Of a stretch of DNA of 64,000 nt, positions 6,540-46,179 are shown one piece after another. The DNA lies in the IMG/VR virus record IMGVR_UViG_3300020440_000014, positions 1 to 64,000 of that record; one strand, written 5' to 3'. This DNA is from a virus (taxonomy: Duplodnaviria > Caudoviricetes). The notes under the pieces were generated by a model, which was not told the origin of the DNA, searched no databases, and saw nothing but the letters and a program-made list of their open reading frames with translations. The translations under genes and the position numbers were made by a program. Numbering within the stretch: position 1 is the first letter of the stretch; the number at the start of each line of letters is the position of its first letter.

Positions 6540-7313
6540 CTATTTATGATAAATCGTATAGTTTTCGAACTCTATTGGTGATAAGTTTTGTGAATAAAGA
6601 AGTAAAAGAGACCATAAATCTTTTTCTTGGAATTCGTAATCGTTTTTAGTCTCTACGAAAACGCCATTGTCTCCTTCAGTTCTGAAGTAATTACTCAACG
6701 ATGTTTCTAAGTTGCCTATTATGATAGGTTTCTGATTGCAATAAATTTCGTCTTTGATTACTTTTTCCATATAATGCATATCATCTCGGTCTTCGCCAAC
6801 ATGCATCTCTAACATGTGTTTATGATATGTGCAAAATGTATTTTTGATTGGAACTTCCGAGAAAATATTCATCCATTCATCAAATGACAAAGCGGGGGAA
6901 TCCAGCAAATCATCTTCATCCCAAACAATCACTTTGGAATCCCATAATTCCAACATTATCATGGCATAAATTCTAGACAAACCTGGATGAAAAAAGATAT
7001 TAAATCTATCGTCTTTTAATTTTAGATGACCTTGTATTGTAGAATAAAATCCTATTGTTTTTTGTTGTTCTATTAACCAAGAAACTTTTGCGCCTATAAA
7101 GGCATCACTATTTTTGTCAGTTGTGTTTATGTTGTCAATCAGTGCTTTAACATTTTGACCTTTACTTTCCTTATTATGAGTCAGTTCTAAATTATATGGT
7201 TTTAAATCTTTCAAAGGCACGTATTTGACTTTGACGCCAATCTGATTGTAAATAGATTTTATCTCATCTTTATTAGTTGTAAAGATATCATAGATGTGTT
7301 TAATTAAAGGCAT
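6540..7313 (-). CDS. Hypothetical protein with ParB/Srx-like 'HPG' domain
   Basis: 'AKVSWLIEQQKTIGFYSTIQG...FFHPGLSR' shared with ORFs at 40852 and 45460. Confidence 0.65.
   Translation of the reverse strand: MPLIKHIYDIFTTNKDEIKSIYNQIGVKVKYVPLKDLKPYNLELTHNKESKGQNVKALIDNINTTDKNSDAFIGAKVSWLIEQQKTIGFYSTIQGHLKLKDDRFNIFFHPGLSRIYAMIMLELWDSKVIVWDEDDLLDSPALSFDEWMNIFSEVPIKNTFCTYHKHMLEMHVGEDRDDMHYMEKVIKDEIYCNQKPIIIGNLETSLSNYFRTEGDNGVFVETKNDYEFQEKDLWSLLLLYSQNLSPIEFENYTIYHK
6541..6548 (-). promoter_or_regulatory. Late promoter variant for gp2 block
   Basis: CATAAATA on the minus strand a few nt upstream of the gp2 ATG. Confidence 0.45.
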
Positions 7314-8052
7314 TGAGAAACTCCTCTACTCTTTTTAAGTCTTGCATTGTATCTACGGAGAGACCTTCATCTTCTACTCTTACCATTTGCACATCGTAAC
7401 CATTTTCTAGAAATCTTAACATCTCAACACTTTCTGCCTTTTCAAGAGCACCAATATCAAGTCTTGGAAAGATTTCTAACATTTTACGACTAAAACAATA
7501 AAGACCCATTTGTTGATTGAAAGGCATCTCTTCTTTTTGTGCAAAAGGTATTGGTAGTCTTGAAAAATATTGTGCAAGGGATAATTTGTTTTTAACTACT
7601 TTCACAATATTTGTATCGTGTTGTTTGTACATGCCTTGAACTTTTGTAAAGGCATTAGATACGCCTATATCATCGTTATGAATTTCTATGAGTGTATCGA
7701 TTGCTTCAGGATTTATCAGAGGTTCGTCACCTTGTATGTTTACAAATTTAGAACCATCTACAAGTTCTATAGCTTTTGCACATCTGTCTGTACCAGTTCG
7801 ACATTCATCTTCAATAACAATACAACGCATTTCACGTTTAGAACAATAATCGTTTATTCTCTCGTCATCGGTTAACACAACTACGCTGTCTAAATTTTTT
7901 GCCATGAGAGCTCTTTCATAAACTCTACGTATCATGGGAATGCCATTAATTTTTGCTAGGGGTTTGCCTTCGAAACGAGACGAATGCCATCTTGCAGGTA
8001 TAAAACCTATAGTGAGATTACTTGACTTATCTGGTCCGCTGAGACTTCGCAT
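7300..8052 (-). CDS. kdsB: CMP-Kdo synthetase-like cytidylyltransferase
   Basis: 'IPARWHSSRFEGKPL..I.G..MI.RVYE', 'TGTDR', 'VNIQGDEP', 'LEKAESVEMLRFLENG', 'SVDT..DL'. Confidence 0.92.
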   Translation of the reverse strand: MRSLSGPDKSSNLTIGFIPARWHSSRFEGKPLAKINGIPMIRRVYERALMAKNLDSVVVLTDDERINDYCSKREMRCIVIEDECRTGTDRCAKAIELVDGSKFVNIQGDEPLINPEAIDTLIEIHNDDIGVSNAFTKVQGMYKQHDTNIVKVVKNKLSLAQYFSRLPIPFAQKEEMPFNQQMGLYCFSRKMLEIFPRLDIGALEKAESVEMLRFLENGYDVQMVRVEDEGLSVDTMQDLKRVEEFLNAFN

Positions 8053-8624
8053 GTCACTTCTCCATATCCATATTTTGCATATATAAAATCAACACCTGCT
8101 CTGTTTGCACAATACAAATCTGATGGCATATCACCAACATATATTGCATCATGTGGGTCAACATTACAGAATGCCATAGTATATAGTAATTGGTCAGGAG
8201 CAGGTTTACCTCTTAGACCTTTTTTAGGCGCACAAACGTAATCAAATTTTGGAAATTTTTTTCCTTTTAATATCAAACTCGCAATAACTTTCTCTACTCT
8301 TACCATATCTTTAGAAGTGCAAATTGCAATTTTACTTCCTGCTTCTTTTATCTTTTCTAGTGTTTCGATTGCACCTTCGTATATCTCAACTTCGTCAATC
8401 ATCATATTTGAAGCTTCATCGTAGGTATCTTTAATTTTATGATGCGATTCAGTAATGTCCAATTCTTTCAATATATCAAAGAATGGTTTGCCAATATGTT
8501 TTTTATATTCATCAAAAGAAACTTCTATATTGTGATGAAGTTTTACAATGTTCCAAGACATCTCCATATTTTTTATTGAATCGATGAGCACTCCGTCTAA
8601 ATCGAAGATGTATAGTTTTTTCAT
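8007..8624 (-). CDS. HAD-superfamily phosphatase (Gph/PGPase-like)
   Basis: Motif I 'IFDLDGVLIDS', 'KPAPD', 'YVGDMPSD'. Confidence 0.9.
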   Translation of the reverse strand: MKKLYIFDLDGVLIDSIKNMEMSWNIVKLHHNIEVSFDEYKKHIGKPFFDILKELDITESHHKIKDTYDEASNMMIDEVEIYEGAIETLEKIKEAGSKIAICTSKDMVRVEKVIASLILKGKKFPKFDYVCAPKKGLRGKPAPDQLLYTMAFCNVDPHDAIYVGDMPSDLYCANRAGVDFIYAKYGYGEVTCEVSADQISQVISL

Positions 8625-9073
8625 TTTCTTTTAGGTAATATTTCTTCTTCAGTTAGAATTCTAAATTTCATTTTTCTATCATCACAATACTCTTTCGCCA
8701 TTTTAAACTTTTCTTGATTTATTACATAAGTATTTACAGCATTGAAATAGTATTTCGTCTTTCTTTCTGGTGTTTTAGGTGGGAATAATTGTTTCTTTGG
8801 TTTAACTTCGATGATTTCTCTAATAATTTGTTTGTCTTTGTTTATATACTTTATATAGAAATCAGGAAAGTATCTATGGACTTTTTTATCGATAGGACTT
8901 CTATAAGGTATGATAAGTTCTTCTGAACCCCATTCAAGTATTGCATCATTATTATCACACCAGACCATGAATCGTCTTTCTAGAAGAGAACGATAGAAGA
9001 TTTTTGTTGGGTCGCCTTTATATTTTTTGTAGTTCTTTGGTTTGAATCTGCCGCTATATGGTTTTTTAGACAT
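8621..9073 (-). CDS. gp4: gp4-like head completion nuclease (TnsA-like fold)
   Basis: 'YSGRFKPKNYKKYKGDPT.I.YRS', 'WGSEE..IPY.SP', 'RYFPDF', 'IEVKP', 'F.ILTE'. Confidence 0.92.
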   Translation of the reverse strand: MSKKPYSGRFKPKNYKKYKGDPTKIFYRSLLERRFMVWCDNNDAILEWGSEELIIPYRSPIDKKVHRYFPDFYIKYINKDKQIIREIIEVKPKKQLFPPKTPERKTKYYFNAVNTYVINQEKFKMAKEYCDDRKMKFRILTEEEILPKRK

Positions 9074-9078
9074 AAATA
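9071..9078 (+). promoter_or_regulatory. Late promoter variant for baseplate operon
   Basis: CATAAATA upstream of gp48. Confidence 0.5.
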
Positions 9079-9101
9079 GTATTACATAATTTGATTAAAG
9101 G

Positions 9102-9109
9102 TATTTATA
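9102..9109 (-). promoter_or_regulatory. Late promoter for gp4 operon
   Basis: Exact TATAAATA on the minus strand, about 30 nt upstream of the gp4 ATG. Confidence 0.6.
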
Positions 9110-9112
9110 CAC

Positions 9113-10282
9113 ATGGCATATATCGACAAACTCATTGGTAAATTCAATAAAGCACAAAACGCCGTAAACTCTTTAAAAGGAGTTGCAGCTAAATTACAAT
9201 CAATTAATTACAATACTGCTTTAGATGCATTAGGCGAACAAAAAGCAGAAGTATTAGAAAAGATTAAAGATAGAAGAAGTTCTTTACAAAGTAGTCTTGA
9301 TGCAAAAAACTTAACTTCAAAAAAATTGTTAAAATCAGTACCTAGTAATCGTCCTGTAGAATTAGTATATCCTTTACATGATGAATTAGCAAATTATCTA
9401 GTGTTTGATATTCGCCCTAGAAGAGATGTTGGTAATGTAGGAGGCGGAAGTGAAAATTCTTCAACTGAAGCTAATTCAATTGCACTATATGTACCAGACG
9501 GAATTGTATCAACTGCTGTAACTGAATACGAAGTAAAGAGTATGGGTGCTTTAGGTACTGCTGTAATGAATATCAAAAAGGCGATAGATTCGCCACAAAA
9601 TGATTTAGCACAAGCAATAGGCGATAATGCAGGTCAAATGATTTCAGGTATGATGTCCGAAATGACAGACGGAATAACAGGTGGTCTATCAAACTTAGCA
9701 GTAGGTCAAGCAGTTAATCCAAGAGAAGAACAAACACTTAGAGGTATACCTTTTAGAACTTGGAATTTTACATTCGATTTTTATCCTAGGTCACCAAATG
9801 AAGCAAAACTAGTAAATGAAATAATTTATACGTTTAGAAATTCTATGTTACCAAATACAACGTCAGTAAATTTTTTCAAAGGTTCAAATAAAAAAGAAGT
9901 TGGGTCAAAAGAACAAATAACACCTAACTATTTTAACTATCCAAATGTCTTTGATATTTACTTTGATGGTCCTGTAGCTGGTAAGATAGATGGTTTTCTA
10001 CCTTCTGTTTTAACATCATGTGAAGTTGACCATACAGGTGGTCAAAAATTTGCAACGTATTACGATGGTCAAATATTAAAAACATCTATGACATTAGCAT
10101 TTCAAGAAATCAGAATTCTTAGTCAAAATAATTACAATAGAATATCTGCTCTTAAACAATCAGAAAACGGATTAGTAGAAAGGTCAAACGAAGAAAGAGC
10201 TGATGCATTAGCAGATGGTGGTAATAGTATTTTTGATAGACGTTCAAGACAGAACTTTGACCAAGAAGGTGGTAATACATAA
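9113..10282 (+). CDS. gp48: gp48-like baseplate tail-tube cap
   Basis: 'NPREEQTLRGIPFRTWNFTFDFYPRSPNEA..V..II..FR', 'YFNYPNVFDI'. Confidence 0.85.
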   Translation: MAYIDKLIGKFNKAQNAVNSLKGVAAKLQSINYNTALDALGEQKAEVLEKIKDRRSSLQSSLDAKNLTSKKLLKSVPSNRPVELVYPLHDELANYLVFDIRPRRDVGNVGGGSENSSTEANSIALYVPDGIVSTAVTEYEVKSMGALGTAVMNIKKAIDSPQNDLAQAIGDNAGQMISGMMSEMTDGITGGLSNLAVGQAVNPREEQTLRGIPFRTWNFTFDFYPRSPNEAKLVNEIIYTFRNSMLPNTTSVNFFKGSNKKEVGSKEQITPNYFNYPNVFDIYFDGPVAGKIDGFLPSVLTSCEVDHTGGQKFATYYDGQILKTSMTLAFQEIRILSQNNYNRISALKQSENGLVERSNEERADALADGGNSIFDRRSRQNFDQEGGNT

Positions 10283-11016
10283 TGGCAAACGAATTCTTTA
10301 AAAACTTTCCTAAAATACAATACAAAATGGATGATGGTAAAATCATCTTCATTAAAGATTGGTTTCGTAAATCTAAGATAGAACAAGATGCAGTTAATTC
10401 TTTAGTCGAATACACACATTATGAAGTGAAAGAAGGCGATAGACCAGATGTAGTTGCAACAAAACTATATGGTAATCCAGATTTACATTGGACATTTTTT
10501 CTAGTAAATGATTTTGAAAATTATTACGACTGGTATATGGACAATGAGATATTTGCTAAGTACTTAGACAAAAAATATCACGGACAATTTTTAATCTTTT
10601 CGAGTTCATTAGATGTCATCAATAATTCAAATCCAAATAATATCACAAAATTTCTACTAGGTGAAAAAATAACAAGTGTATCAGCAGAAGGCAGAATTGT
10701 ATCAGTAGAACCAACATTCAAAAGAATTGCAGTCGACTCAACAGGATTTAAAGCAAACGAATCTATTACAGGTGCTGTAAGCACAACTCACGGTTCAAAA
10801 ACACCAATCAGTGTTGTTAACAGAGTAGATGGTATTTTTGAATATAAAAATCCTACAACAGGAATCAAACGTAATTCTGAAGCTTCAGGATTTACAAGTG
10901 TGTCTATTTTAGACCACGAAATAGAAGAGAACGAAAAAAAGAGAAAGATAAAAGTTATCAGACCTGACCTTATCAACGGAGTTGTTCGAAGATTTGAGAA
11001 GGTAATGTTGTCATGA
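10282..11016 (+). CDS. gp53: gp53-like baseplate wedge subunit
   Basis: 'FFKNFPKIQY', LysM-like 'GDRPDVVATKLYGNPDLHW', 'EIEENEKKRKIKVIRP'. Confidence 0.9.
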   Translation: MANEFFKNFPKIQYKMDDGKIIFIKDWFRKSKIEQDAVNSLVEYTHYEVKEGDRPDVVATKLYGNPDLHWTFFLVNDFENYYDWYMDNEIFAKYLDKKYHGQFLIFSSSLDVINNSNPNNITKFLLGEKITSVSAEGRIVSVEPTFKRIAVDSTGFKANESITGAVSTTHGSKTPISVVNRVDGIFEYKNPTTGIKRNSEASGFTSVSILDHEIEENEKKRKIKVIRPDLINGVVRRFEKVMLS

Positions 11017-12479
11017 GTGAAAATTTTATACCAGGTGAGGTAGTCATTGATTCTATCACACTCGTCAATCAAGAAGGAGATGTTATTGACCTCAAAAGTA
11101 TTTGTGGTCAAATAGATATTTTCGAATCTATCAATGAGGGATTTCTAACAGGCAGATTATCTATTGCAGATGGTCTTGGTATTTTTAGACGATATAAAAT
11201 TTTAGGTCAAGAACACATAACAATTCGTTATCGTGCAAAACTTCAACATGAATTTGAATCTGGTGATTTCTCAGTTGAAAAAGTTTTTAGAGTATATAAA
11301 GTTTCTAATATGAGGGCACCTGAGTTTCATACTTATGGTTATGTTCTACACATTATAGAACCAAAATATCTTACATGTATACGTAAAAGATTATCTAAAG
11401 TCATGAGAGGTTCTTATTCAGAAATACTTTTACAAACACTTCTTAAAGATGCACAATTTGAAAAACTTCCTAAAAATAATAGAATTGATTATTGGGAAGA
11501 AACATTGCCCGAGAATCAACAATTGATATGTCCTAATTGGTCTATTGCAAAGTTAATTGAATATATCGTAGAAAATGCCAATAAGGGAGAAGATGCCGTA
11601 TATAAAAATAGCATGTTCTTTTATCAGACTTTGATAGGTGGGTTTAAGTTCATGTCACTAAATCAAATGGTGAGTGGCGAAAATGACCACGTTGTTGAAT
11701 TTGATTTCTTACCGAGAAACTTTGATATTGACCAAGAGAATCGTGGTTCAAATGAACCATTAGGCGGACAATCAACTAGAATTTTACATTTCGAAATAGT
11801 ACAAAGAGGCGATACCGTAAGAGGTATATCAGCAGGCGCTTATAGTTCTATGCTAAAAACGTATGACCCAATTCGTAAATTAGAAAAAGAAATCGTATTC
11901 GATTTAGGTGAAAATTTTAAAAAGAAAGGCAAAAAACATCTATCAGGTTTTCCACTTTTAAGATTAGACGAAGACGAAGTTGTTCATATGGGTGTAGTAC
12001 CTTTAACAGATGATGAAGATTATACTTACAACGAAATAGGTGCTGAACTTGCTTTAAACAAAAGTATCGATGATAGAACTTTCTATCGTGTGAATCCTAC
12101 AAATGCATTTAGTGATAAACAAGCTCTGCAAGACACATCTCAGTATGTAGGAAATGAACAAATGGATTCAGGTATGTTAGAAAGAAATAGTATGTCAATT
12201 GCTTTATCATCACACACATACAAAGTTACAATACCTGCTAGAACAGATATGACATCAGGTATGGTCGTTAATTTAAAATTGCCTGGTGGTGTTATAGATA
12301 AAAACGATGAAGATATTTTAAACGATGATAGATATCTTATCACACATATACATCACGTCATAAATCCACAACAGGCAAGAGGCACGATGGTCATGAATGT
12401 AGTTAAAGAAAGTTTTGCAGAAGACATTCGAAAGGTCGACCCATTAAAAGATTATGAAGGATTTAAGCAAGATGACTAA
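11013..12479 (+). CDS. Baseplate hub protein (gp27-like)
   Basis: Lies between gp53 and gp5; 'IDIFESI...FLTGRLSIADG', 'MFFYQT..GFKFMSL', 'RYLITHIHH'. Confidence 0.65.
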   Translation: MSENFIPGEVVIDSITLVNQEGDVIDLKSICGQIDIFESINEGFLTGRLSIADGLGIFRRYKILGQEHITIRYRAKLQHEFESGDFSVEKVFRVYKVSNMRAPEFHTYGYVLHIIEPKYLTCIRKRLSKVMRGSYSEILLQTLLKDAQFEKLPKNNRIDYWEETLPENQQLICPNWSIAKLIEYIVENANKGEDAVYKNSMFFYQTLIGGFKFMSLNQMVSGENDHVVEFDFLPRNFDIDQENRGSNEPLGGQSTRILHFEIVQRGDTVRGISAGAYSSMLKTYDPIRKLEKEIVFDLGENFKKKGKKHLSGFPLLRLDEDEVVHMGVVPLTDDEDYTYNEIGAELALNKSIDDRTFYRVNPTNAFSDKQALQDTSQYVGNEQMDSGMLERNSMSIALSSHTYKVTIPARTDMTSGMVVNLKLPGGVIDKNDEDILNDDRYLITHIHHVINPQQARGTMVMNVVKESFAEDIRKVDPLKDYEGFKQDD

Positions 12480-13770
12480 TTGGTACTACGGCATAATTGA
12501 AGATAGAAACGACCCATTACAAATTGGTCGTGTTAGAGTTCGTGTACATGGTGTTCATACAGACAATAAACAATTCATTGCAACACCCGACTTACCATGG
12601 TCTCAAGTTTTAGTACCAACATCAAGTGCAAGTTTATCTGGATTTGGTCATAGTCATGGACTTGTTGAGGGTTCTAGTGTTTTTGGAATGTTTCGTGACG
12701 ATGATTTACAAGACTTTGTTGTCTTTGGTGGTGTTGCAGGTTATTCTCAAAAAGGATATAAAGAAACAATTACAGGTGAAATACTAGATAGGTCACCTGA
12801 TAAAGGTTTTAATGACCCAAGACGAGCAACTGAAGCTGATTATAAAGATACAGCAGATGGTTTAAATCCACCAGCAGGTAAGAGACCAAATAGTCTAGCA
12901 TTAGCATTAGATAAATCACCGCATCTTCCAGATTCACTTACTATAAATTATGACGGTTCAGGAAGTACTATTACTGAACCAACAGATAAAACTTTACCTT
13001 ATTACCCATTAGCAGATTATTATGATGAATCAGACATCAATAGATTTGCAAGAGGTCAAGGTACATATGATATCAGAGATAACTTACCAGAAAAATTCAA
13101 ACTTTCAATCGACAGAAGTGGTACAATGTATCCTTTCAATAAAGTTCATCATACCGAATCAGGTCATTTAATTGAGATGGACGATTCAGTTGGTGCAGAA
13201 AGACTTGCTGTTCAACATAGGTCTGGAACTTTCTATGAAATACATAAAGACGGTTCTGAAGTTCATCAAATAGTAAACGACCATGTCACCGTTACAGCAA
13301 AAGATGATAAAGTTTATATTGGTGGTAATGCTGATGTTGTTGTTGAGAGTGGTAATGTAACAATCAATGTTAATACTGGTAATGTTGACTTAACGGTAGC
13401 AAAAGGAAACGTTACAGAAACCATATCTGAAGGTAACGTGACATCATCAATCACAAAAGGTAATTTCACAGGAGATATAGGTGGTAATTTCAAAGGAGAC
13501 ATAGGCGGAACTACTGATATATCTTCTTCAGGTAAAGTTACATTGACAGGTAACTCTGGTACAGAAATTATATCAGACACAACCGTAACAGGAACATTAA
13601 ACGTAACAGGTGCTACGAAATTGCAATCAACTTTAAATGTATCAGGTTCTCAAACTAATAGTTCTACTATAACTGCAAGTGGTGATGTTAAAGGTGCTGG
13701 TATATCTCTTAAAACACATACACACGTTGTAGGCGGAAGTGCAGCTCCTTCAACAGGACTTCCAAAGTAA
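12454..13770 (+). CDS. gp5: gp5-like central spike (OB-fold + beta-helix, no lysozyme domain); true start may be ATG 12472
   Basis: 'GIIEDRNDPLQIGRVRVRVHG', 'LPWSQV', 'HHTESGHLIEMDDSVGAERL...HRSGT', beta-helix repeats, C-terminal 'LKTHTH'. Confidence 0.9.
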   Translation: MKDLSKMTNWYYGIIEDRNDPLQIGRVRVRVHGVHTDNKQFIATPDLPWSQVLVPTSSASLSGFGHSHGLVEGSSVFGMFRDDDLQDFVVFGGVAGYSQKGYKETITGEILDRSPDKGFNDPRRATEADYKDTADGLNPPAGKRPNSLALALDKSPHLPDSLTINYDGSGSTITEPTDKTLPYYPLADYYDESDINRFARGQGTYDIRDNLPEKFKLSIDRSGTMYPFNKVHHTESGHLIEMDDSVGAERLAVQHRSGTFYEIHKDGSEVHQIVNDHVTVTAKDDKVYIGGNADVVVESGNVTINVNTGNVDLTVAKGNVTETISEGNVTSSITKGNFTGDIGGNFKGDIGGTTDISSSGKVTLTGNSGTEIISDTTVTGTLNVTGATKLQSTLNVSGSQTNSSTITASGDVKGAGISLKTHTHVVGGSAAPSTGLPK

Positions 13771-13773
13771 TTG

Positions 13774-13781
13774 TATAAATA
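13774..13781 (+). promoter_or_regulatory. T4-type late promoter
   Basis: Exact TATAAATA just before the gp25 ATG. Confidence 0.6.
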
Positions 13782-13786
13782 GTATT

Positions 13787-14209
13787 ATGGCTGAGTATCT
13801 AAAACCAAATTCTAAAGTAAACGCAGTAAAAGATGCTTATGTAGATTTGGATTTATTAATGAAACCACATCCAGTTACTGGCGATATAACAACAAAAAAA
13901 GATTCAGATGCAGTTAAAAGGTCAGTAAGAAATATTGTACTTACAAATAAGTTTGAAAGACCATTCAAACCAAATTTTGGTGGTAGTGTAAGAGATATGT
14001 TATTTGAATTAGACTCGTCAAGAAAAAAAACAAGATTCAAAAAAGAATTGATATCTTTAATAGAATCTTTAGAACCTAGAGTTTTCAATGTTTCAGTGGA
14101 ACTAGGAGAAATGGGCGATTCAAATAGTCTAGATGTAAGAATATTCTATAGTATAACAAATGGTCTACCAAACCAAACATCAGAATTTACGGTAACAAGG
14201 GTAAGATAA
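13787..14209 (+). CDS. gp25: gp25 baseplate wedge subunit
   Basis: 'YVDLDL...PHPVTGD', 'AVKRSVRNIVLTNKFERPFKPNFG', 'LEPRV'; start moved to ATG 13787. Confidence 0.92.
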   Translation: MAEYLKPNSKVNAVKDAYVDLDLLMKPHPVTGDITTKKDSDAVKRSVRNIVLTNKFERPFKPNFGGSVRDMLFELDSSRKKTRFKKELISLIESLEPRVFNVSVELGEMGDSNSLDVRIFYSITNGLPNQTSEFTVTRVR

Positions 14210-16080: not shown

Positions 16081-16154
16081 TATGTATAAAGTGATTACGG
16101 AAATTACCGTAAGTAGCATCCCATTAACTTGGTTTTTATAGGAGGAAACTTAAA

Positions 16155-30661: not shown

Positions 30662-30662
30662 T

Positions 30663-36079: not shown

Positions 36080-36084
36080 GTACC

Positions 36085-36918: not shown

Positions 36919-36979
36919 GAAGAAGGCACATTTTACTAAATATTAGCGTCAATTGAACATTAAAGAGGACACATAAAAA

Positions 36980-37243
36980 ATGGCAACACAAAATTCATTT
37001 GTAATAGAGTATGGATTGACGGTTGGTTCAACCGAGGTGATAAACTCTTCTGGTAAATTACAATCTAGTGCGATTAGTGAGTTAGATACGGATAATCTTT
37101 CAGAGGGGTCAACGAATCAATATTTTTCAAACGCAAGAGCAAGAGGCGCAATTAGTCTAGCATCTGGCGAATCAAATCTTTCATACAACTCTACATCTGG
37201 TGAGTTGTCTTTACCATCGGTGAACGGAGGCACATTTAGTTAA
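36980..37243 (+). CDS. Small fibre-associated protein ending NGGTFS
   Basis: 'DTDNLSEGSTNQYF..ARAR' repeat unit; N-terminus similar to 37246. Confidence 0.65.
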   Translation: MATQNSFVIEYGLTVGSTEVINSSGKLQSSAISELDTDNLSEGSTNQYFSNARARGAISLASGESNLSYNSTSGELSLPSVNGGTFS

Positions 37244-37245
37244 AA

Positions 37246-39159
37246 ATGACAAGTAAGAATTTTATAATCAAAAACGGCCTTACCGTTGGAAACACAGAGG
37301 TCATAGATAGTTCAGGTAATATAACAGCAAGTGGTGTAGGTGCAGCTGTACAAGAAGCAATCGCTGATAAAATTGGTGGTATCATTCAAGGTTCAGGTTC
37401 AACAACCGTAACTTATGATGATGCAAACGATACAATTACCATTTCATCAACAGGAAAAACAGAAGAAGAAATACAAGACATAGTTGGCACTCAGATAGTA
37501 TCAAATGGTTCACATACAGGTGTTTCATTTGTTTATGATGATTCAACTGATGGTGGTATAAATGCTACGGTTTCATTATCATCTTTTAACACAGGCAACT
37601 TAGATGAAGGTGCTAACTTATACTATACCGATGCAAGAGCAGATGCTAGAATCGCAGCTGCAAGTACAAGTGACTTATCAGAAGGTTCAAACAAATATTA
37701 TACAGACGAAAGAGTAGATGATAGGGTTAACGCTTTAATCACAGCAGGTTCAAACATAACAACTACATATGATGACGCCGCTGGTACTTTGACTATCGCT
37801 GCTACAGAAGATAATCTTTCAAACAACGATACAGATGACCTTTCAGAAGGTACAACAAATCAATACTTTACTGAAGCAAGAGCAAGAAGTTCAATATCAG
37901 TTTCAGGCGACTTATCATATAACTCTACATCTGGTGTTATTTCATTTACAAACGATGCTGGTGATATAGAAAGTGTCACAGCAGGAGATGGTCTATCAGG
38001 TGGTGGTTCATCAGGAGCTGTCTCACTTGCATTAGATTTAAATGAATTAACAGACCAAGCAGTAGATGTCGCAAACGATAGTATTGCGATTATAGATGCA
38101 ACAGACAATTCTACCAAAAAAGATTTAATTAGAGATGTTGTCACAGGTATCGCTGGTACAGGTCTTGGTGCATCTTCAGGTGTTTTAAATGTTTCATTAG
38201 CATCATTTGATACAGGCAACTTATCTGAAGGTTCAAACAAATATTATACAGACGAAAGAGTAGACGACAGAGTTAATGCATTAATTACTGCTGGAACAAA
38301 TATCTCAACTTCATATGACGATGCAAACGGAACACTTACGATTAACTCTTCAGGTAAAACTGAAGAAGAAATCGAAGATATTGTAAACGGTTTAATAGTC
38401 GGTGGGACAAACATCACATCAACATACGATGACGGTGCTGGAACACTTACACTTGCTGGTCTATCAGATTCAGATATCAGAGGTTTAGTATCTGCTGGTG
38501 GTAATTTATCATACAATAGTTCAACAGGTGAATTCTCATTTACAGAAAGAACAGATGCAGAAGTCAGAGGACTTGTATCAGTCACAGATTCAGGCGGAGA
38601 TGGTTCACTTGCATATAATTCATCTACAGGTGTAATCACATACACAGGCCCAAGTGCATCAGAAGTCAGAGCTCATCTAAGTGCAGGAACTGGTGTAACA
38701 TATTCAAGTGGTGAATTTAGTATCGGTCAGGCAGTTAACACTAATAGTAATGTTACATTTAACAATGCAGTAATCGATGGTAACTTAACGGTTAATGGAA
38801 CAACAACATCAGTTTCATCAACAAATACTACAATCGAAGATGCATTAATCGAATTAGGGTCTGGTAACACAGGTGCTAACTCAAATGACCTTGGACTTAT
38901 CTTAGAGAGAGGAAGTACAGGTGATAATGGATTTATGGGTTGGGATGAAAGTGCCGATAGATTCGTAGTTGCGACAACAACTGCAACAGGTTCTTCAACT
39001 GGTGGACTAAGTTTATCTGAAGCAAACTTTAGAGCAAATCAGATAACAACAAGTTATGCATCAAATAGTGGTGGTGTAGCGAGAAACATATATCAATCAA
39101 CTTCTGCTCCGGGTAGTTCAGATGGACAAGTTGGCGATTTATGGATTTTATACTCTTAA
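37246..39159 (+). CDS. Tail fibre protein with internal repeats
   Basis: Several 'T.NL.EG..N.YYT..R' and 'GKTEEEI.DIV' repeats; C-terminal 'YQSTSAPGSSDGQVGDLWILYS'. Confidence 0.8.
   Translation: MTSKNFIIKNGLTVGNTEVIDSSGNITASGVGAAVQEAIADKIGGIIQGSGSTTVTYDDANDTITISSTGKTEEEIQDIVGTQIVSNGSHTGVSFVYDDSTDGGINATVSLSSFNTGNLDEGANLYYTDARADARIAAASTSDLSEGSNKYYTDERVDDRVNALITAGSNITTTYDDAAGTLTIAATEDNLSNNDTDDLSEGTTNQYFTEARARSSISVSGDLSYNSTSGVISFTNDAGDIESVTAGDGLSGGGSSGAVSLALDLNELTDQAVDVANDSIAIIDATDNSTKKDLIRDVVTGIAGTGLGASSGVLNVSLASFDTGNLSEGSNKYYTDERVDDRVNALITAGTNISTSYDDANGTLTINSSGKTEEEIEDIVNGLIVGGTNITSTYDDGAGTLTLAGLSDSDIRGLVSAGGNLSYNSSTGEFSFTERTDAEVRGLVSVTDSGGDGSLAYNSSTGVITYTGPSASEVRAHLSAGTGVTYSSGEFSIGQAVNTNSNVTFNNAVIDGNLTVNGTTTSVSSTNTTIEDALIELGSGNTGANSNDLGLILERGSTGDNGFMGWDESADRFVVATTTATGSSTGGLSLSEANFRANQITTSYASNSGGVARNIYQSTSAPGSSDGQVGDLWILYS
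37681..38264 (+). repeat. 38-nt exact direct repeat within fibre gene
   Basis: gaaggttcaaacaaatattatacagacgaaagagtaga at 37681-37718 and 38227-38264. Confidence 0.85.
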
Positions 39160-39196
39160 TTGAGTAACATATATATTATAACAGAGATTTAAAAAT

Positions 39197-40060
39197 ATGG
39201 CAACAGGTTCACAAAAAGTAAAAACACCATCGGGTTGGAATAGTACTCGAGGTGCTTGGGTAAAAACAGGTGCAAGTACTTGGAAAGATGCAGACCAAAT
39301 CTACATCAAAACGCCTTCAGGTTGGAATAACGCATCTGGTCAAACAAGTGTTCAACAACCTTATCCATATATTGCAAATGCTCAGAATCCTGTAATTAGA
39401 AATAGACAAAATCCATATCCTTACATAGCAAATGCTCAGAATCCTGTAATCAGAGACGCTCAAGAGCCTAATATTAGAAGTGCTCAAGAGCCTAATATTA
39501 GAAGTGCTCAAGAACCTAATATTAGAGATGCAAGACAACCTGCTATATATCAAGTTAACGTGCCTTCTAGAAGTCCATTTACATATCAACACAGGTCACC
39601 GTTTACATATAGAAATCCGGTGAGTGCTCAAGAACCTAATATTAGAAATAGACAAACACCATTTACATATAGACACCCAGCATCTGCTCAAGAACCTAAT
39701 ATTAGAAATGGTCAAACACCATTTAGATACCCAGCAAATGGTCAAACGCCATTTAGATATCCTGCTAATGCAAGACAACCTGCTGGTTATAGAGCAAGTG
39801 CTAGACAACCATTTACATATCAAGCGCAATATAGAAGTCCATTTACGTATCGAGCAAGATATCCAGCTATTTACTCTTTTAGTTTTCAAAGCCCGTTTAA
39901 TCAAACTGACCCACAAGCTGATGGACAAACACCTTATAGAGCGTCAGCTCAACAACCTGCGATTGCTAGAAGTCCGTTTAGATATATAACGCCAGCTAGA
40001 CAACCATACTTTTATACATTCGGCGGTTTCGGCGGTTTCGGTGGTTTTAATATAAGGTAA
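39197..40060 (+). CDS. Pro/Gln/Tyr/Arg repeat protein (module 2, protein A2)
   Basis: N-terminal 'VKTPSGW..WVKT..W..IYIKTPSGW', then QEPNIRSA, SPFTY, QTPFRYPAN repeats; no Leu or Cys in 287 aa; ends 'GGFGGFGGFNIR'. Confidence 0.75.
   Translation: MATGSQKVKTPSGWNSTRGAWVKTGASTWKDADQIYIKTPSGWNNASGQTSVQQPYPYIANAQNPVIRNRQNPYPYIANAQNPVIRDAQEPNIRSAQEPNIRSAQEPNIRDARQPAIYQVNVPSRSPFTYQHRSPFTYRNPVSAQEPNIRNRQTPFTYRHPASAQEPNIRNGQTPFRYPANGQTPFRYPANARQPAGYRASARQPFTYQAQYRSPFTYRARYPAIYSFSFQSPFNQTDPQADGQTPYRASAQQPAIARSPFRYITPARQPYFYTFGGFGGFGGFNIR
39458..39529 (+). repeat. 3 x 24-nt tandem repeat (AQEPNIR[S/D])
   Basis: gctcaagagcctaatattagaagt x2 exact plus one variant. Confidence 0.9.
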
Positions 40061-40094
40061 ATGATATGAATAGTTTAAGTAGGAAAAAAATATA

Positions 40095-40817
40095 ATGCCA
40101 TCAGGAAGAAGAATAGTAGGCTCAAGAGCATCAGGTCAATCACCTGGTAATGTTGGAAATCCGTTTACTTATAATAATAGGCAGCCATTTACGTATCCAC
40201 ATTCCGTACAGGCTCGACAACCAAACATTGGTTCTGGTAGTTATCGAGCAAGATATCCTGCTAACGGTCAACAACCTGTTCCTTATATTGCTAATGGTCA
40301 AACACCATTTAGATACCCAGCAAGTTATCAAATACCATTTACATATAGAGCAAGTGCTAGACAACCATTTACATATAGAGCAAGTGCTAGACAACCATTT
40401 ACATATAGTCATAGGTCACCGTTCACATATAGACACCCAGCAAGTGCTAGACAGCCATCTACGTATCAACATAGGTCACCGTTTACATACAGAAATCCAG
40501 TAAACGGTCAAGAACCAAATATACGTGACGCAAGACAACCTAATATAGTTCAACAATCCAGAAACTATCAAATACCATTTACGTATCAACACAGGTCACC
40601 GTTTACGTATCAACATAGGTCGCCATTTACGTATCAACACAGGTCACCATTTACGTATCAACATAGAAGTCCTTCTACATATGCTAGACAAGGTCAGACA
40701 CCAACTACGTATCAACATAGAAGTCCTTCTACATATGCTAGACAAGGTCAGACACCAGTGATACGTTGGGATAATGACTTGGCTAATCAGTGGCCAGGTT
40801 CTCCTGTGACTGGATAA
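40095..40817 (+). CDS. Pro/Gln/Tyr/Arg repeat protein (module 2, protein B2)
   Basis: PFTYQHRS and PFTYRASARQ repeats; no Lys or Cys, one Leu, four acidic residues in 240 aa. Confidence 0.75.
   Translation: MPSGRRIVGSRASGQSPGNVGNPFTYNNRQPFTYPHSVQARQPNIGSGSYRARYPANGQQPVPYIANGQTPFRYPASYQIPFTYRASARQPFTYRASARQPFTYSHRSPFTYRHPASARQPSTYQHRSPFTYRNPVNGQEPNIRDARQPNIVQQSRNYQIPFTYQHRSPFTYQHRSPFTYQHRSPFTYQHRSPSTYARQGQTPTTYQHRSPSTYARQGQTPVIRWDNDLANQWPGSPVTG
40334..40408 (+). repeat. 2.5 x 30-nt exact tandem repeat (PFTYRASARQ)
   Basis: accatttacatatagagcaagtgctagaca repeated; a rotated copy of the same 30-mer occurs in A2 at 39791-39820. Confidence 0.9.
40575..40757 (+). repeat. 4 x 24-nt (PFTYQHRS) repeat plus 52-nt duplication
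   Basis: Units at 40575, 40599, 40623, 40647; exact 52-mer at 40652-40703 and 40706-40757. Confidence 0.9.
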
Positions 40818-40851
40818 ATAAGTTAGTACAAGCTAATAAAAACTTTATATT

Positions 40852-42459
40852 ATGAAAAGACTCACGTTAAAAGAAGCCCAAGAACTATTTAAAGACTACG
40901 ATTCAGAAAAATTTCCTAATTCAACTACAACTCAAATTGGTCATTTTGATATCGTCAAAGATAAACAAATAGGTCAAAATAAAGAACAGACAATTGAAGT
41001 TTTACATTGGATATATGAAAATGTAACTAGTTATCCAAAAATTGTTAAATGGAAAGAAGTTAGAAAAATATTTCAAACCGAATTATCTCATAATAATTAT
41101 AAATTAAGTAGTTGGGGCAAACTCAAACATCCATCTTTTATCTACAACGCATTATTACCAAAAGTCTATACGTCAGAACCTGAAGTAGCTGCTCCAGGTT
41201 TTTTAGGTTTTGGTACTAAGAACCTAAAAGACGAACACGATGACTTATCTCATTTATCAGATGTTACAAGAGAAACAGATTTAGTAAAATCATCTTACTA
41301 TCATGCTGCTAAAGCACACTGGTTAGTGCAAGACATAAGAAAAAACGGATTATGGAATAGACCGCAAGGCAAAGTATATAAAGATGGAGATAATCGTTTT
41401 AGACTTATGATGCATCCAGGTTCTGTTCGTTCACAGGTCATTGAAATGTTAGATGATGATGATTTAGAACTTATGATTTATGATAAACATAATTTATTTC
41501 CAGATATACAACCTACGACTCTTGAGTTTATGCTCGATGAAATAAAAACAAGAATTTCAGAAATAGAAGAGAATGATGCCCTTTCACGTAAGTTGCATAC
41601 AGATGTTTCTTTTCATCTTTCAGCTGGAGGATATATTGAAATGAGTTCATCTTTAGCACATATGCATAATATGGATTTTAGAACTGAGGTTTATAAATTT
41701 AATAGACAAGTGACCGAATTATCTTCAGGTAAACCTATTACAATCTATGTTGGTTATGATAGTAGACATGAAAACATATCTGAACAAGCAAAAAGATTAA
41801 TTGATTTAAGAATAGCACAAAGTCTCGGTGGAGGAGATATAACAGGTCTCTTCAAGTGGTTTAAACCTGAAGTCAAGTTATTAGATATTTCAAAAATACC
41901 AGAGTATACAAGAGAATATGCAAACCAGTCTACTGAATTCACTTATAGTAGATTTTTGATACCTTATCTAGAAAATTATGAAGGATTCAGTATGTTTGTT
42001 GACAATGATATTTTATTCAGAGAAACGCCTTTACCCTTTTTATATTTTTTAAATCCAGAAGACGCTGTAGCTTGTGTACAATACAATTTTGATAAACACG
42101 ATGAAACAAAAATGGATGGCGAAAAGAACGTCTCTTATCCTAAAAAGCTTTGGTCTTCATTAATGGTTTTCAATAATAGTCATGAAGATTGTAAGAAGTT
42201 AACTCCTGAGGTAATCAATACAGAATCAGGTAAATATCTACATCAATTTGAATGGACAAATGCAATCAGTGAAATACCAGAATCACATATTGTCACTGAA
42301 GGATTTGATACGTTAAAAGATAAACCACATGCATTTGCAATACATTATACAAGAGGTGGTCCTTGGATAAAAAACATGAATTTAGACAACCTAAATATGC
42401 TTGACGAATATCAAAACATGATTAATAAAATACAAGTAGAGGAAAACTTTTTAAAATAG
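40852..42459 (+). CDS. Fusion: ParB/Srx-like 'HPG' domain + GT-A glycosyltransferase (GT8-like)
   Basis: C-terminal 'IYVGYDSR', 'TEFTYSRFLIPYL...G.SMFVDND.LF', 'YPKKLWSSLMVFN', 'IHYTRGGPW'; N-terminal 'AKAHWL...PQG...HPGSVR'. Confidence 0.85.
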   Translation: MKRLTLKEAQELFKDYDSEKFPNSTTTQIGHFDIVKDKQIGQNKEQTIEVLHWIYENVTSYPKIVKWKEVRKIFQTELSHNNYKLSSWGKLKHPSFIYNALLPKVYTSEPEVAAPGFLGFGTKNLKDEHDDLSHLSDVTRETDLVKSSYYHAAKAHWLVQDIRKNGLWNRPQGKVYKDGDNRFRLMMHPGSVRSQVIEMLDDDDLELMIYDKHNLFPDIQPTTLEFMLDEIKTRISEIEENDALSRKLHTDVSFHLSAGGYIEMSSSLAHMHNMDFRTEVYKFNRQVTELSSGKPITIYVGYDSRHENISEQAKRLIDLRIAQSLGGGDITGLFKWFKPEVKLLDISKIPEYTREYANQSTEFTYSRFLIPYLENYEGFSMFVDNDILFRETPLPFLYFLNPEDAVACVQYNFDKHDETKMDGEKNVSYPKKLWSSLMVFNNSHEDCKKLTPEVINTESGKYLHQFEWTNAISEIPESHIVTEGFDTLKDKPHAFAIHYTRGGPWIKNMNLDNLNMLDEYQNMINKIQVEENFLK

Positions 42460-42461
42460 TA

Positions 42462-42490
42462 TTGTAATTAAAGACCACTTAGTATATAAT
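42462..42490 (+). promoter_or_regulatory. sigma70-like promoter
   Basis: TTGTAA (42462-42467), 17 nt spacer, TATAAT (42485-42490), then AGGAG and ATG 42501. Confidence 0.45.
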
Positions 42491-42500
42491 AGGAGTTATT

Positions 42501-43052
42501 ATGAATATGTTAATTTATTGTGAAAATGGAAATCTAACCATCAGAAAATCAAATGGTTTAGAATATACCTTTAATAATACAGATAAACCAAATTTTGGTT
42601 TTGAGTATGATGTCATCATTTACGATGACATAGAAGTAAAGATTTTAGAGTGGAAAGAAAATGTTCCTTTTGATAAACAAGAACATATAACTCTAAATGA
42701 AACAGAAATCGATGCTATTGAGCAGTACATAGAAAATTCAGAACCGCCTGAAGGCCATTCGTTAAATCAACAATATAGCAATCAACTATGTAATATGACA
42801 AACAATTATTGTCAAGAACAGGCTCAAAATTATGGTTTTAATGACTTATTGGAAGTTATGATAGCAGCAAGAGAGGGTTCTTGTCACCCATTTAGAATTA
42901 ATGCAAGAAGAACCTTAGAATATTATGATGCAGTCTGGTCGGTATATGATAATCTTATGCAAGAGATAATCAATACAAGAGAAGATGTGTTAAGAGAATA
43001 TGAACATTATGCTTCTGCTATACCAACTCCAGTGAGACCACCTCAAGCTTAA
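42501..43052 (+). CDS. Probable tail-fibre assembly chaperone
   Basis: C-terminal 'AQNYGFNDL.......HPF...A......YDAVW..Y..L......IP' resembles Tfa-like chaperone ends. Confidence 0.5.
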   Translation: MNMLIYCENGNLTIRKSNGLEYTFNNTDKPNFGFEYDVIIYDDIEVKILEWKENVPFDKQEHITLNETEIDAIEQYIENSEPPEGHSLNQQYSNQLCNMTNNYCQEQAQNYGFNDLLEVMIAAREGSCHPFRINARRTLEYYDAVWSVYDNLMQEIINTREDVLREYEHYASAIPTPVRPPQA

Positions 43053-43055
43053 ACA

Positions 43056-43727
43056 ATGCAAGTCGAGTATATAGATGCTCCATTTAGCATTGAAAAATTA
43101 CCTTTAGATAAAATTTATGTAATTGACAATTATCTAGAAAAATCATTACATCATTTTTTTGACAAGTATATCACAAATGCTTCAATATGGTCTAAAACCA
43201 ATCAAGTCAATTCAATTAGCCCAACAGGTTTGCCTCATCATAGTTTTTGGGGAGGAAGTTTTTTTAGAACAAAAAATGGTTTGAAGACTATCGAAACAGA
43301 CATGGAACCAAGGCATACTTATTTTGCTGATTTTTTAGATAAAAGAATACAAACCGATTTTGGTTTCGAATGGATTAGATTTCAATATATGGGTTTAAAT
43401 TCACAAACACACGGACTACAAGGAACTACCCATTCAGATTGCCCAAAAGAAGATGAATGGAATCTTTCTTTTTTATATTATTACAATAGATATTGGAATA
43501 AAGATTGGGGTGGTGTATTGAGATTTTACGATGAGCATCAACAAGGGCTAGATGGTCGTGATGAACACATACAGAATCATCAAATTGCAGAAGTTGAATT
43601 TAAACCCAATCGATTATTAATGTTTGACGGAAGAATACCACACGGTGCAGATGCGCCGAATGAAAATGCAAGATATATGGATAGAAGGTCAGTTGTGTTG
43701 AGAGGAGATGAAGTATGCCTACTATAG
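43056..43727 (+). CDS. 2OG-Fe(II) oxygenase (prolyl-hydroxylase-like)
   Basis: HxD 'HSD', 'WNKDWGGVLRF', 'FKPNRLLMFDGRIPH', distal 'R.S'. Confidence 0.85.
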   Translation: MQVEYIDAPFSIEKLPLDKIYVIDNYLEKSLHHFFDKYITNASIWSKTNQVNSISPTGLPHHSFWGGSFFRTKNGLKTIETDMEPRHTYFADFLDKRIQTDFGFEWIRFQYMGLNSQTHGLQGTTHSDCPKEDEWNLSFLYYYNRYWNKDWGGVLRFYDEHQQGLDGRDEHIQNHQIAEVEFKPNRLLMFDGRIPHGADAPNENARYMDRRSVVLRGDEVCLL

Positions 43728-44554
43728 ATTTTATCTCATTCACCGAAGAAACGGTAAGATTAGTAAAACCAGTTTTAGCTAAAAAAGCTCAACCTGAATG
43801 GTGGAAGAAATCAAAAATAGCTGATATCACACATGGCGAAATAGCCAGAACTATTAGAAGTTGTCCTGCGATGGACGATTGGTTAAAGTCTGGTTGGATT
43901 ATTGAAACATTACATGATATAGATGTGATACAAGGAGATAATAATGGTACATTTAATTCTGAATTTAAAGTAACAACATTGCCTCATCATGCTGTAGCAT
44001 CGCCAAGCCATCCCGAAACACAATTAAATAATTTTTTACCATACGGTTTAAACGATAGAATCAAGTCTGCTTTTAAAATCAGACAACCATGGAATGTTAT
44101 AACTCCGCCTGGTTATTCATGTTTATTCTTAGACCCATTTCTTACTAACAACATACACTTTACGGTATGGCAAGGAATTATAGATACAGATAAATTTAAT
44201 GTAAATAACGATAATGCTCAAATGATATTTTATCCTAAAGTTAATCATAGTTTTACGATAAAAAAAGGCACAGCATTATGTCAAATTATACCTTACAAAA
44301 GAGAAGTCTGGACTGCAACGTATCAAGTACATTCTAGTAAATCTTATATAGAAAATAGAAATAAAGTTACCAAAAATGTTGAAAATACATCTATGGAAGA
44401 ATATAACAAAGATTCTAAATATGAAGTAGACAACGCATTAGGCGGCGCAAGTCCGTATAGAAGAGAAGGACAATGGCAAGAAAAAGGTAAATTGTATAAA
44501 GAAAGTGAACCGCCACCAGAGTGCCCATATCACGGTAAAATAGAAAATGATTAA
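43715..44554 (+). CDS. Conserved marine-phage protein of beta-barrel type, function unknown (DUF6065-like)
   Basis: 'CPAM.DWL..GW', 'PW.V.TPPGYSCLF..P', 'GIIDTD', 'KGT.LCQIIPYKRE.W'. Confidence 0.55.
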   Translation: MPTIDFISFTEETVRLVKPVLAKKAQPEWWKKSKIADITHGEIARTIRSCPAMDDWLKSGWIIETLHDIDVIQGDNNGTFNSEFKVTTLPHHAVASPSHPETQLNNFLPYGLNDRIKSAFKIRQPWNVITPPGYSCLFLDPFLTNNIHFTVWQGIIDTDKFNVNNDNAQMIFYPKVNHSFTIKKGTALCQIIPYKREVWTATYQVHSSKSYIENRNKVTKNVENTSMEEYNKDSKYEVDNALGGASPYRREGQWQEKGKLYKESEPPPECPYHGKIEND

Positions 44555-45221
44555 GTTGATGTTTCCAGCTTTTGTTTGTGTCAAAGAATTTCTTGATAAA
44601 GATTCAGAACAATATCCAAATATGACAAGAGAGTATTTTAAGATACTCAAAGATGAAATGGATAACATGCAAAAGTTAGACCCTAAAGGTAGAAATGTTT
44701 CTAATTCAGGAGGTTGGCAGTCTAACGATGGTATAGAATCTAATCCTATATTTGTTAAAGCATATCGTACAATTAAGAGAGTCGTAGCAAATGAATTGGT
44801 GCCTGCTTTAGGTTTAGAAAAAAATTCTTTTAATGTTGTAATGCATAACTCTTGGGGTAATATGAATTTCAATGGCAATTTCAATAAACCTCATCTACAT
44901 AATGGCTGTTTTTATTCTGGTGTCATGTATATTAAAGCTGATGGTGATGAAGGAAATTTAGTATTTGTAGATACAAATCATAAAATAGCAGGTGTATTTC
45001 CACCAAATCCGATGATGAAAGAATCGGAGATATATTCACCTAGAACAGGCGACTTATATTTGTTTCCTAGTGGTTTGATGCATATGGTAGAACCGAATCT
45101 AACAGATAAAACCAGATATAGTATATCATTCAACTTAGAAGTTAATGGTGGTCAACGAAGAGAAACTATTCAAAATGAACATTTAAAGTATGAAGTGAAT
45201 GATGAGGGTGACTGCTTTTGA
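44547..45221 (+). CDS. Putative 2OG-Fe(II) oxygenase (TIGR02466-like)
   Basis: 'SN.GGWQS', 'SWGNMN..G.FN.PHLH...YSGVMYI', 'LYLFPS.L.H.V', 'RYSISFN'. Confidence 0.85.
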   Translation: MIKLMFPAFVCVKEFLDKDSEQYPNMTREYFKILKDEMDNMQKLDPKGRNVSNSGGWQSNDGIESNPIFVKAYRTIKRVVANELVPALGLEKNSFNVVMHNSWGNMNFNGNFNKPHLHNGCFYSGVMYIKADGDEGNLVFVDTNHKIAGVFPPNPMMKESEIYSPRTGDLYLFPSGLMHMVEPNLTDKTRYSISFNLEVNGGQRRETIQNEHLKYEVNDEGDCF

Positions 45222-45227
45222 TAAATA
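45220..45227 (+). promoter_or_regulatory. Late promoter variant
   Basis: GATAAATA 6 nt before the 45234 ATG. Confidence 0.4.
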
Positions 45228-45233
45228 GTATAT

Positions 45234-45497
45234 ATGGACAATATAGTTATAGACCCAACATTACTTTGGAATTTAATTCTTTCTCTTATCATAGTGCCTG
45301 TGGGTGTTCTTGTTAGAACTATTCTAGCAGAACAAAAAAGAATGGATATTCTCATTAATAAAACAAGAGAAGAAATAGCAAAAGATTATGTAACTAGAGA
45401 CCAGTTAGAAAAGGATTTAGAGAAATTAATTTCTACGGTAGAAAGAATGGACGAAAAACTTGACAGAATCCAGACCAAAACTTATTTTCAAGACTAA
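45234..45497 (+). CDS. Small membrane-anchored coiled-coil protein
   Basis: N-terminal hydrophobic helix 'LLWNLILSLIIVPVGVLV' followed by heptads. Confidence 0.7.
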   Translation: MDNIVIDPTLLWNLILSLIIVPVGVLVRTILAEQKRMDILINKTREEIAKDYVTRDQLEKDLEKLISTVERMDEKLDRIQTKTYFQD

Positions 45498-46179
45498 AGA
45501 AGATTTTTTACAAAGTCAATCACTCAGAGAAAATTTTCAAAATTGCCAAGGAGAAGTAACTCGATTTGATACAGAGTCTTTGCCTGATTGGTACAAAGAG
45601 CATTTTGAATTATTACTCAGTCATTATAATATAGAACCTACATACGATAGTTTTCTATATCATTTCGAAAAATATCATTTAACACCTTATGATTGTTCTA
45701 AGTATCTTTGGTTAAAAGATAGTGTTAAAAAAGAAAACACGTATTGTCCTAGTCAGTCTTTTTATAATCCATCAGAATTTGATAGTAAAGAATTATTTCA
45801 TGCCGGTAGATTAAAGTCTTTGGTCACATATGAAATGAATGTTGGTTTATATGATATATGGACTCGCAAAGACCATCCAAAAGATTGGATAGAATGGTCT
45901 TGGATAAAACCCATGACTTATGAAGAGTGGTTATCTGAATATCATTTTAATGAAAATATAATACATTATCATTACATGAAAGATAGAAAAGTTATATGTG
46001 TTTTAGTTCAAAAATCTAATAAACCCGGTCTTCGTGAAAAATATGGCGACCTAATAGATAGAGTTTACAATGATGCTAGATTTACGGTAGATGGTATTGT
46101 CTACTCTTATGATGATTTGAAAACTAAACGATATTGTATTGATTCACAATTAGAACCAAAAATCGAGTTTATGGAATGA
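45460..46179 (+). CDS. Hypothetical protein with third ParB/Srx-like 'H[PA]G' domain (TTG start uncertain)
   Basis: 'SKYLWLKDSVKKENTYCPSQ...LFHAGRLK' aligns with 6540 and 40852. Confidence 0.6.
   Translation: MTESRPKLIFKTKEDFLQSQSLRENFQNCQGEVTRFDTESLPDWYKEHFELLLSHYNIEPTYDSFLYHFEKYHLTPYDCSKYLWLKDSVKKENTYCPSQSFYNPSEFDSKELFHAGRLKSLVTYEMNVGLYDIWTRKDHPKDWIEWSWIKPMTYEEWLSEYHFNENIIHYHYMKDRKVICVLVQKSNKPGLREKYGDLIDRVYNDARFTVDGIVYSYDDLKTKRYCIDSQLEPKIEFME

Follow-up and report, generated by a model that had tools for sequence, protein, structure and literature searches.

A His-Pro-Gly domain shared by three dispersed phage proteins, probably a diverged branch of the ParB/sulfiredoxin fold found beside sugar-handling enzymes

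What is the domain that recurs in three genes scattered along the genome of an uncultured marine T4-like phage, and what might it do there? The question is raised by a stretch of 64,000 nucleotides (the window) of the 72.8-kb IMG/VR record IMGVR_UViG_3300020440_000014, which is ~40% complete and was assigned to a T4-like phage from its structural genes (baseplate, tail-tube, gp53 and neck protein families). An initial annotation had noticed in three open reading frames (ORFs) the pattern K-x2-WL-x9-[WY]-x3-Q-x14/15-H[PA]G-x2-[RK], after which the domain is here termed HPG (His-Pro-Gly). Paralogue A (6540-7313, minus strand) is a stand-alone HPG-domain protein of 257 residues, B (40852-42459, plus strand) has 535 residues, and paralogue C (45460-46179, plus strand) has 239 residues, a TTG start that overlaps the upstream 87-residue ORF by 38 nt, and a motif that has drifted to HAG..K. 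The pattern and its spacing were recovered in exactly these three among 434 six-frame ORFs, and the regular expression gave 0 matches in 200 residue shuffles, a count that is descriptive only because the pattern was defined post hoc. Sequence comparison identifies A, the N-terminal half of B and C as true paralogues of one domain. The most satisfactory explanation as a whole, that they belong to a branch of the ParB/sulfiredoxin (Srx) fold and carry out nucleotide-dependent phosphotransfer in glycan building, could equally be right or wrong, and its parts are weighed separately below.

The relationship between A and B is clear, and on sequence grounds the two are homologous. BLASTP aligned them at E 2e-8 with 28% identity over 120 residues, a profile of 26 non-redundant B-family N-terminal domains found A at 2.2e-14, and a profile of 20 A-family proteins found B at 8e-19. 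Likeness extends beyond the motif to a [LT][ST]x[DE]E[WF][ML] helix and an N-x-[ST]-F...[LI]-E-[MV] hairpin. The core of A (residues ~65-156; 6846-7121, minus strand) aligns to residues 139-235 of B and to residues 77-161 of C (45688-45942, plus strand). Reciprocal retrieval by profiles, which the initial annotation had expected of all three domains, was obtained for A and B and not for C directly, which reached HMMER values of 0.07-0.23, a BLASTP value of 0.32 to B and nothing to A, while always being the next-best ORF of the window in A- and B-family searches.

The shared ancestry of C became visible through an intermediate. Searched exhaustively by HMMER with C as query, 1.8 billion representatives yielded one real relative, P0007 (238 residues, E 2.8e-6), which carries the canonical HPG motif and aligns in one register with both A (9e-5) and B (0.008). 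P0007 alone aligned to the A+B profile with an hhalign probability of 95.2%, and the C+P0007 profile did so at 94.4% with a score of 55.7, against 13.5 +/- 2.4 (maximum 22.0) for 150 column shuffles and 16.1 for the reversed sequence. A hidden Markov model (HMM) of C+P0007 retrieved essentially only B-family ORFs from the 2018 ORFs of 41 loci, with E down to 5e-5. The P0007 link, the profile score and this retrieval together place C in the family, and C keeps K81, W84, Q99, H114, G116, K119, D132 and a TYEEWL motif in register with the other members. Comparison with a 93%-identical copy in a lineage-mate contig gave a ratio of non-synonymous to synonymous substitution rates of 0.17, which marks C as a working gene under purifying selection.

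No name attaches to this family, as the initial annotation had it: the HPG regions of A, B and C have no match in Pfam, PHROGs, NCBIfam or PDB sequences, and only the C-terminal half of B matched a PHROG of function not known (phrog_28018). PF02195 (ParB_N) gave no match at E up to 10 in the three proteins, in 28 family members or in the whole record; Pfam scans of the 28 members at the same threshold returned scattered noise only. No other Pfam domain was found in A, C or the N-terminal half of B, a helix-turn-helix (HTH) or other DNA-binding domain was not detected, and neither the HPG-domain profile nor the transferase-half profile matched PDB sequences. IMG/VR yielded 41 B-type and 22 A-type loci, bearing out the suggestion of a family expanded in phages, and no relative was found in 185,579 prokaryote genomes, where, the scan having used one B-type peptide pattern, absence is only weakly indicated. 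Word-indexed protein searches returned one 87% relative of A, one 512-residue relative of B, and C itself only. Neither tblastn of A and of the N-terminal half of B against 50,697 phage genomes (nothing significant) nor single-sequence pattern scans of IMG/VR with A and with C recovered relatives. For C, an alignment scan of IMG/VR with its family likewise found none, its family profile found nothing in five large related records, and a metagenome scan returned only one near-identical lineage-mate. To date all members found come from marine T4-like phages. Behind the HAD and KdsB genes of a related phage stand two tandem A-like genes (L052:3710-5390) of 291 and 290 codons with a slight overlap, so that the family undergoes local duplication in addition to dispersal.

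Known representatives of the ParB/Srx fold are cytidine triphosphate (CTP)-switch DNA clamps, sulfiredoxin and a handful of small-molecule kinases. An AlphaFold model of the N-terminal HPG domain of B (residues 1-285; 40852-41706, plus strand), built from 28 sequences, reached a predicted local distance difference test score (pLDDT) of 84 and a predicted template modelling score of 0.81. Foldseek searches with this model placed Noc, PadC, sulfiredoxin, KorB and ParB first in PDB (E 0.02-0.1, probability up to 0.98) and phage proteins named ParB/Sulfiredoxin on top in BFVD. For A, AlphaFold gave a poor model (pLDDT 51) that offers a weak second look only; its Foldseek search returned the same families, and the three lists headed by ParB, Noc and sulfiredoxin have E values of 0.01-0.2 overall. 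VIA-align of the B model ranked Osa, Srx, SbnI, PadC and SerK top, and ParB_N occurred in 10 of the 30 clusters that are ESM feature neighbours of A. When aligned by hhalign to a ParB N-domain profile made from 33 bacterial genes, A+B reached 9% probability and a score of 25.5 (maximum of 100 shuffles, 17.5), with WLxxxIxxxGLWxPIQG lying on LxxSIxxxGxxQPIxV and HPGSVR on AGERRW. The models and searches make it likely that the HPG domain has a ParB/Srx-like fold, of which it is probably a very diverged and unnamed branch. Such a fold had been proposed from the outset and is probably right, on evidence that is weak but consistent; it is the sole fold family that all structure and feature searches indicate, though weakly.

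In the domain signature a long helix carrying a Lys is followed by a Gly-x5-Gln turn and then by a strand whose end, His-Pro-Gly-x-x-Arg, opens a helix; beyond that helix come an Asp at the end of a further strand and, later on, a Glu. Invariant positions in the A family (20 sequences) are K76, L80, G88, H109-P110-G111, R114, W131-D132, E169 and H171, and those in the B N-domain family (26 sequences) are A153, K154, W157, G166, H188-P189-G190, R193, D211, E263 and F276. Thus K, G, H-P-G, R, D and the later E are invariant in both families despite ~20% inter-family identity; C and P0007 keep K, H, G and D, with K replacing R. In this fold the Gly-x-x-Arg of HPGxxR would sit where ParB (GERR) and Srx (GCHR) have the GxxR that binds phosphate. 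Its Gly and Arg never vary within the A and B families and become G..K in C and P0007, while the residue after the motif Gly, the position of the Srx Cys, is S in B, L, M or Q in the A family and R or I in C and P0007; of the ParB arginine patch (GERRxR) a single Arg is left. Because they are invariant across very diverged copies, these six polar or glycine positions (K, G, HPG, R, D and E) point to a ligand-binding or active site.

The C-terminal half of B (41701-42456, plus strand) is by sequence a GT-A (GT8-like) glycosyltransferase domain, as had been proposed for the fusion partner. An FxDxD motif is invariant in 27 sequences of this half, ESM features place it at 0.97-0.98 to glycosyltransferase-named clusters of which 10-22% of members carry PF01501, and tblastn retrieved annotated phage glycosyltransferases at 1e-20 to 5e-30; Pfam PF01501 itself and PDB sequences gave no match. 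All 41 B homologues, of 509-553 residues (one cut by a contig end), keep the fusion, and they are 55-64% identical in the C-terminal half and only 27-38% in the N-terminal half. B stands in a conserved plus-strand module (39197-45497), delimited by Pfam and by the same order in related loci, that runs from two Pro/Tyr-rich repeat proteins through B, a 183-residue protein, a 2-oxoglutarate (2OG) oxygenase (Oxy_3), a 279-residue protein and a second 2OG oxygenase (Oxy_5) to an 87-residue protein. With a 637-residue protein before it and the neck genes after it, the block has one order in 41 of 41 related loci over the stretch that each contig covers. The two repeat proteins that always precede B (39197-40817 in the window; L001-L041) are Pro/Tyr/Arg-rich tandem-repeat proteins, and they vary in copy number and length between relatives while the flanking enzymes are fixed.

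A lies in a different setting, in which the KdsB and HAD neighbours noted at the outset were confirmed, as were the 2OG oxygenases upstream of C. The KdsB-like cytidine monophosphate (CMP)-3-deoxy-D-manno-octulosonate (Kdo) synthetase (7300-8052, minus strand; Pfam CTP_transf_3 2e-44; NCBIfam NF003952 243 bits, above its cut-off; syntenic in 22 loci) follows a HAD-IA type phosphatase or mutase (8007-8624, minus strand) that is not KdsC-like and is the first gene of a HAD-KdsB-A cassette. Across the 22 A-type loci the order, as far as the contig reaches, is a gp4-like (TnsA_N) gene, HAD, KdsB, the A-like gene, a ~195-residue gene and a tube-like gene. Where the contig is long enough every A homologue follows HAD and KdsB, stop and start codons often overlapping; KdsB and A often overlap by 1-14 nt across relatives and by 14 nt in the window. 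The cassette is bounded by a 194-residue gene (5951-6535) and by a conserved 150-residue gene with a TnsA-like N-terminal domain (8621-9073, minus strand; Pfam Tn7_TnsA-like_N 1e-22; 70-75% identity across relatives), which we take to resemble the T4 gp4 head-completion gene and which would then presumably have a nuclease-like fold. Inside this one operon a strong rate contrast is observed, A-like genes being 28-39% identical across relatives as against 47-69% for HAD, 57-65% for KdsB and 70-76% for the gp4-like gene.

Comparison with relatives separates the three loci. A 124-kb relative (L139; G001:22020-25442) carries B, and its gp4-like gene abuts the ~191-195-residue gene without HAD, KdsB or A, so that HAD-KdsB-A behaves as a removable three-gene cassette of which B is independent, and this junction shows precisely where the cassette is inserted. 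C, for its part, is an insertion specific to the lineage, since the 87-residue gene is directly followed by the neck gene, without C, in all 39 of the 39 related loci that reach the junction; C is kept only in the near-identical contig L141. The initial annotation had held that paralogy ties the loci together functionally. Co-occurrence does not support such a tie between the A, B and C loci: A belongs to the removable cassette, B occurs without that cassette, and C is missing from the junction in related loci.

What, then, could the domain do? SerK and SbnI are free L-serine kinases with a ParB/Srx fold that transfer phosphate to a hydroxyl. Analogy with the chemistry of SerK, SbnI and sulfiredoxin favours phosphotransfer, and the constant partnership with KdsB, HAD and the GT8-like half favours glycan building, so that a nucleoside triphosphate (NTP)-dependent phosphotransfer role in glycan building is a tentative reading that falls a little short of an even chance; nucleotide binding, kinase chemistry and substrates are all what we infer rather than observe. 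On this proposal the HPG domain would bind a nucleotide (an NTP or a nucleotide-sugar) and direct NTP-dependent phosphotransfer to a hydroxyl of a sugar or glycan. B would physically link this reaction to its GT8-like transferase, which with the two 2OG oxygenases may decorate the neighbouring Pro/Tyr-rich repeat proteins; in A the domain, alongside KdsB and the HAD phosphatase, would process a Kdo-type sugar in activated form; and C would be a recent, diverging spare copy. Apart from the role of the HPG domain, the module of repeat proteins, glycosyltransferase and prolyl-hydroxylase-like oxygenases probably decorates virion proteins.

The same fold could instead serve non-enzymatically, the HPG domain being a nucleotide- or protein-binding adaptor or activator of the fused transferase, of KdsB or of the 2OG oxygenases, the main alternative, though one that we consider rather unlikely. 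Its precedent lies in phage ParB homologues that are required by their cognate Fe/2OG dioxygenases, and that activate thymine dioxygenases independently of NTP-site residues, still working when these are mutated (PMC13229309); the oxygenases here, however, are prolyl-4-hydroxylase (P4H)-like, of Oxy_3 and Oxy_5 types, not TET/JBP. C comes immediately after two 2OG oxygenases whose module also includes B, yet C is absent from every related module that reaches the junction, so the oxygenases of the module do not need it, and no oxygenase adjoins A. Divergence is much faster in the HPG domains than in their partners, as in specificity modules, but the invariant K, H, R, D and E at ~20% identity fit a catalytic or ligand site better than a docking surface.

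A narrower alternative concerns C only, which might be no third paralogue but a decayed PD-(D/E)XK nuclease, kin of PSSM2_329, with a coincidental HPG-like motif; this is very improbable. PSSM2_329 of cyanophage P-SSM2, a PDDEXK_1 exonuclease, is the best tblastn match of C among phage genomes, but the match was chosen post hoc and has E = 2 database-wide. In hhalign C alone reaches 74% to PSSM2_329, about the same as its 76% to the A+B profile, and C is the top-ranking ORF of the window for a 71-sequence exonuclease profile; the probability of C nevertheless drops to 31% against this family profile, and Pfam PDDEXK_1 does not match C. At the catalytic D...(D/E)xK positions of the PSSM2_329 alignment C has K and DIW, while its conserved HPG-family residues, from K81 to D132 and including TYEEWL, are in register. 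P0007, the sole significant relative of C, scores 0.0-0.1% to the exonuclease against its 95.2% to the A+B profile. Given the E value, the drop to 31%, the catalytic residues absent from C and the lack of any trace in P0007, the resemblance between C and PSSM2_329 is most likely due to chance, though not fully explained. It includes the identical tetrapeptides SKEL and DWIE at near-equal spacing (window 45778-45942 and L142:2222-2911; 25% identity over 149 residues).

Most characterised ParB N-domain proteins act on DNA. That the HPG domains do so too, by binding, nicking or guiding glycosylation, with B a DNA-modifying glycosyltransferase, draws further on the recurrence of ParB-like partners of DNA glycosyltransferases in phages (PMC13229309), but is the least probable reading of all, as no HTH or other DNA-binding domain was detected, the ParB arginine patch is cut to one Arg, the surroundings of A, B and C alike are late structural genes, B invariably has repeat proteins and P4H-like oxygenases as its neighbours, and its transferase half resembles GT8/GT24-type enzymes, not DNA glycosyltransferase families.

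If NTP-dependent phosphotransfer in glycan building is correct, a phage-only branch tied to sugar-activating and sugar-transferring enzymes would widen the known roles of the ParB/Srx fold, and the HPG domain would supply a missing step in a widespread and unstudied module of marine T4-like phages. A bolder extension, which we think rather improbable, would make HPG a new catalytic ParB/Srx branch, a phage-specific sugar or glycan kinase or an enzyme handling CMP- or nucleoside diphosphate-sugars. B would then be a bifunctional kinase-glycosyltransferase that, with the P4H-like oxygenases, places phosphorylated glycans on hydroxylated Pro/Tyr-rich virion repeat proteins, and A would perform a phosphate-dependent step in a Kdo-type pathway encoded by the phage. 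Such a virion protein glycosylation system would be of a kind not described for phages. In any case HPGxxR defines a clean family whose invariant residues are open to direct mutation and assay.

Among known systems, the CTP-binding domain of ParB, Noc, KorB and PadC (PF02195) provides the top Foldseek matches of the HPG models in PDB and BFVD. In contrast with ParB clamps, HPG proteins have no PF02195 match, no HTH and no recognised dimerisation domain, and carry one Arg in place of the arginine patch. The best compact overlap is with sulfiredoxin (PDB codes 1xw3, 3cyi, 2rii and 6ky4; 61 columns, root mean square deviation 2.5-3.0, Foldseek probability 0.97-0.98). Both have a GxxR phosphate-binding turn where a helix begins; HPG domains, however, do not conserve the catalytic Cys of GGCHR and have no peroxiredoxin context. 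SerK and SbnI (PDB codes 5x0b, 5ujd and 6nr6) are stand-alone proteins of ~240-255 residues, to be compared with 257 for A, 239 for C and 285 for the N-terminal part of B. VIA-align lays residues 28-276 of B over nearly their whole length, the ParB/Srx core of these kinases being probably shared by the HPG domain.

The 5mYOX-associated phage ParB activators also have a ParB fold without a DNA-binding domain and lie beside Fe/2OG dioxygenases, often near glycosyltransferases (PMC13229309). They differ in being recognisable ParB homologues paired with TET/JBP-type DNA dioxygenases (PMC13229309), whereas the present phage has P4H-like oxygenases and an HPG domain that is fused to a transferase or placed after KdsB. 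Finally, stand-alone GT8/GT24-like transferases of Pelagibacter phage Mosig, Synechococcus phage S-SCSM2R and Stenotrophomonas phage DLP_6 are 30-39% identical to the C-terminal half of B over ~200 residues and have no HPG domain. A split HPG domain beside the S-SCSM2R and Mosig transferases was considered and rejected, as neighbouring ORFs fail the HPG profiles. In S-SCSM2R (L074:6001-12523) the stand-alone transferase shares a cluster with two hypothetical genes, with KdsB and KdsA at a distance of two genes, with a glycine amidinotransferase and, close by, with two 2OG oxygenases, so that the transferase, Kdo and oxygenase themes are contiguous in a cultured cyanophage.

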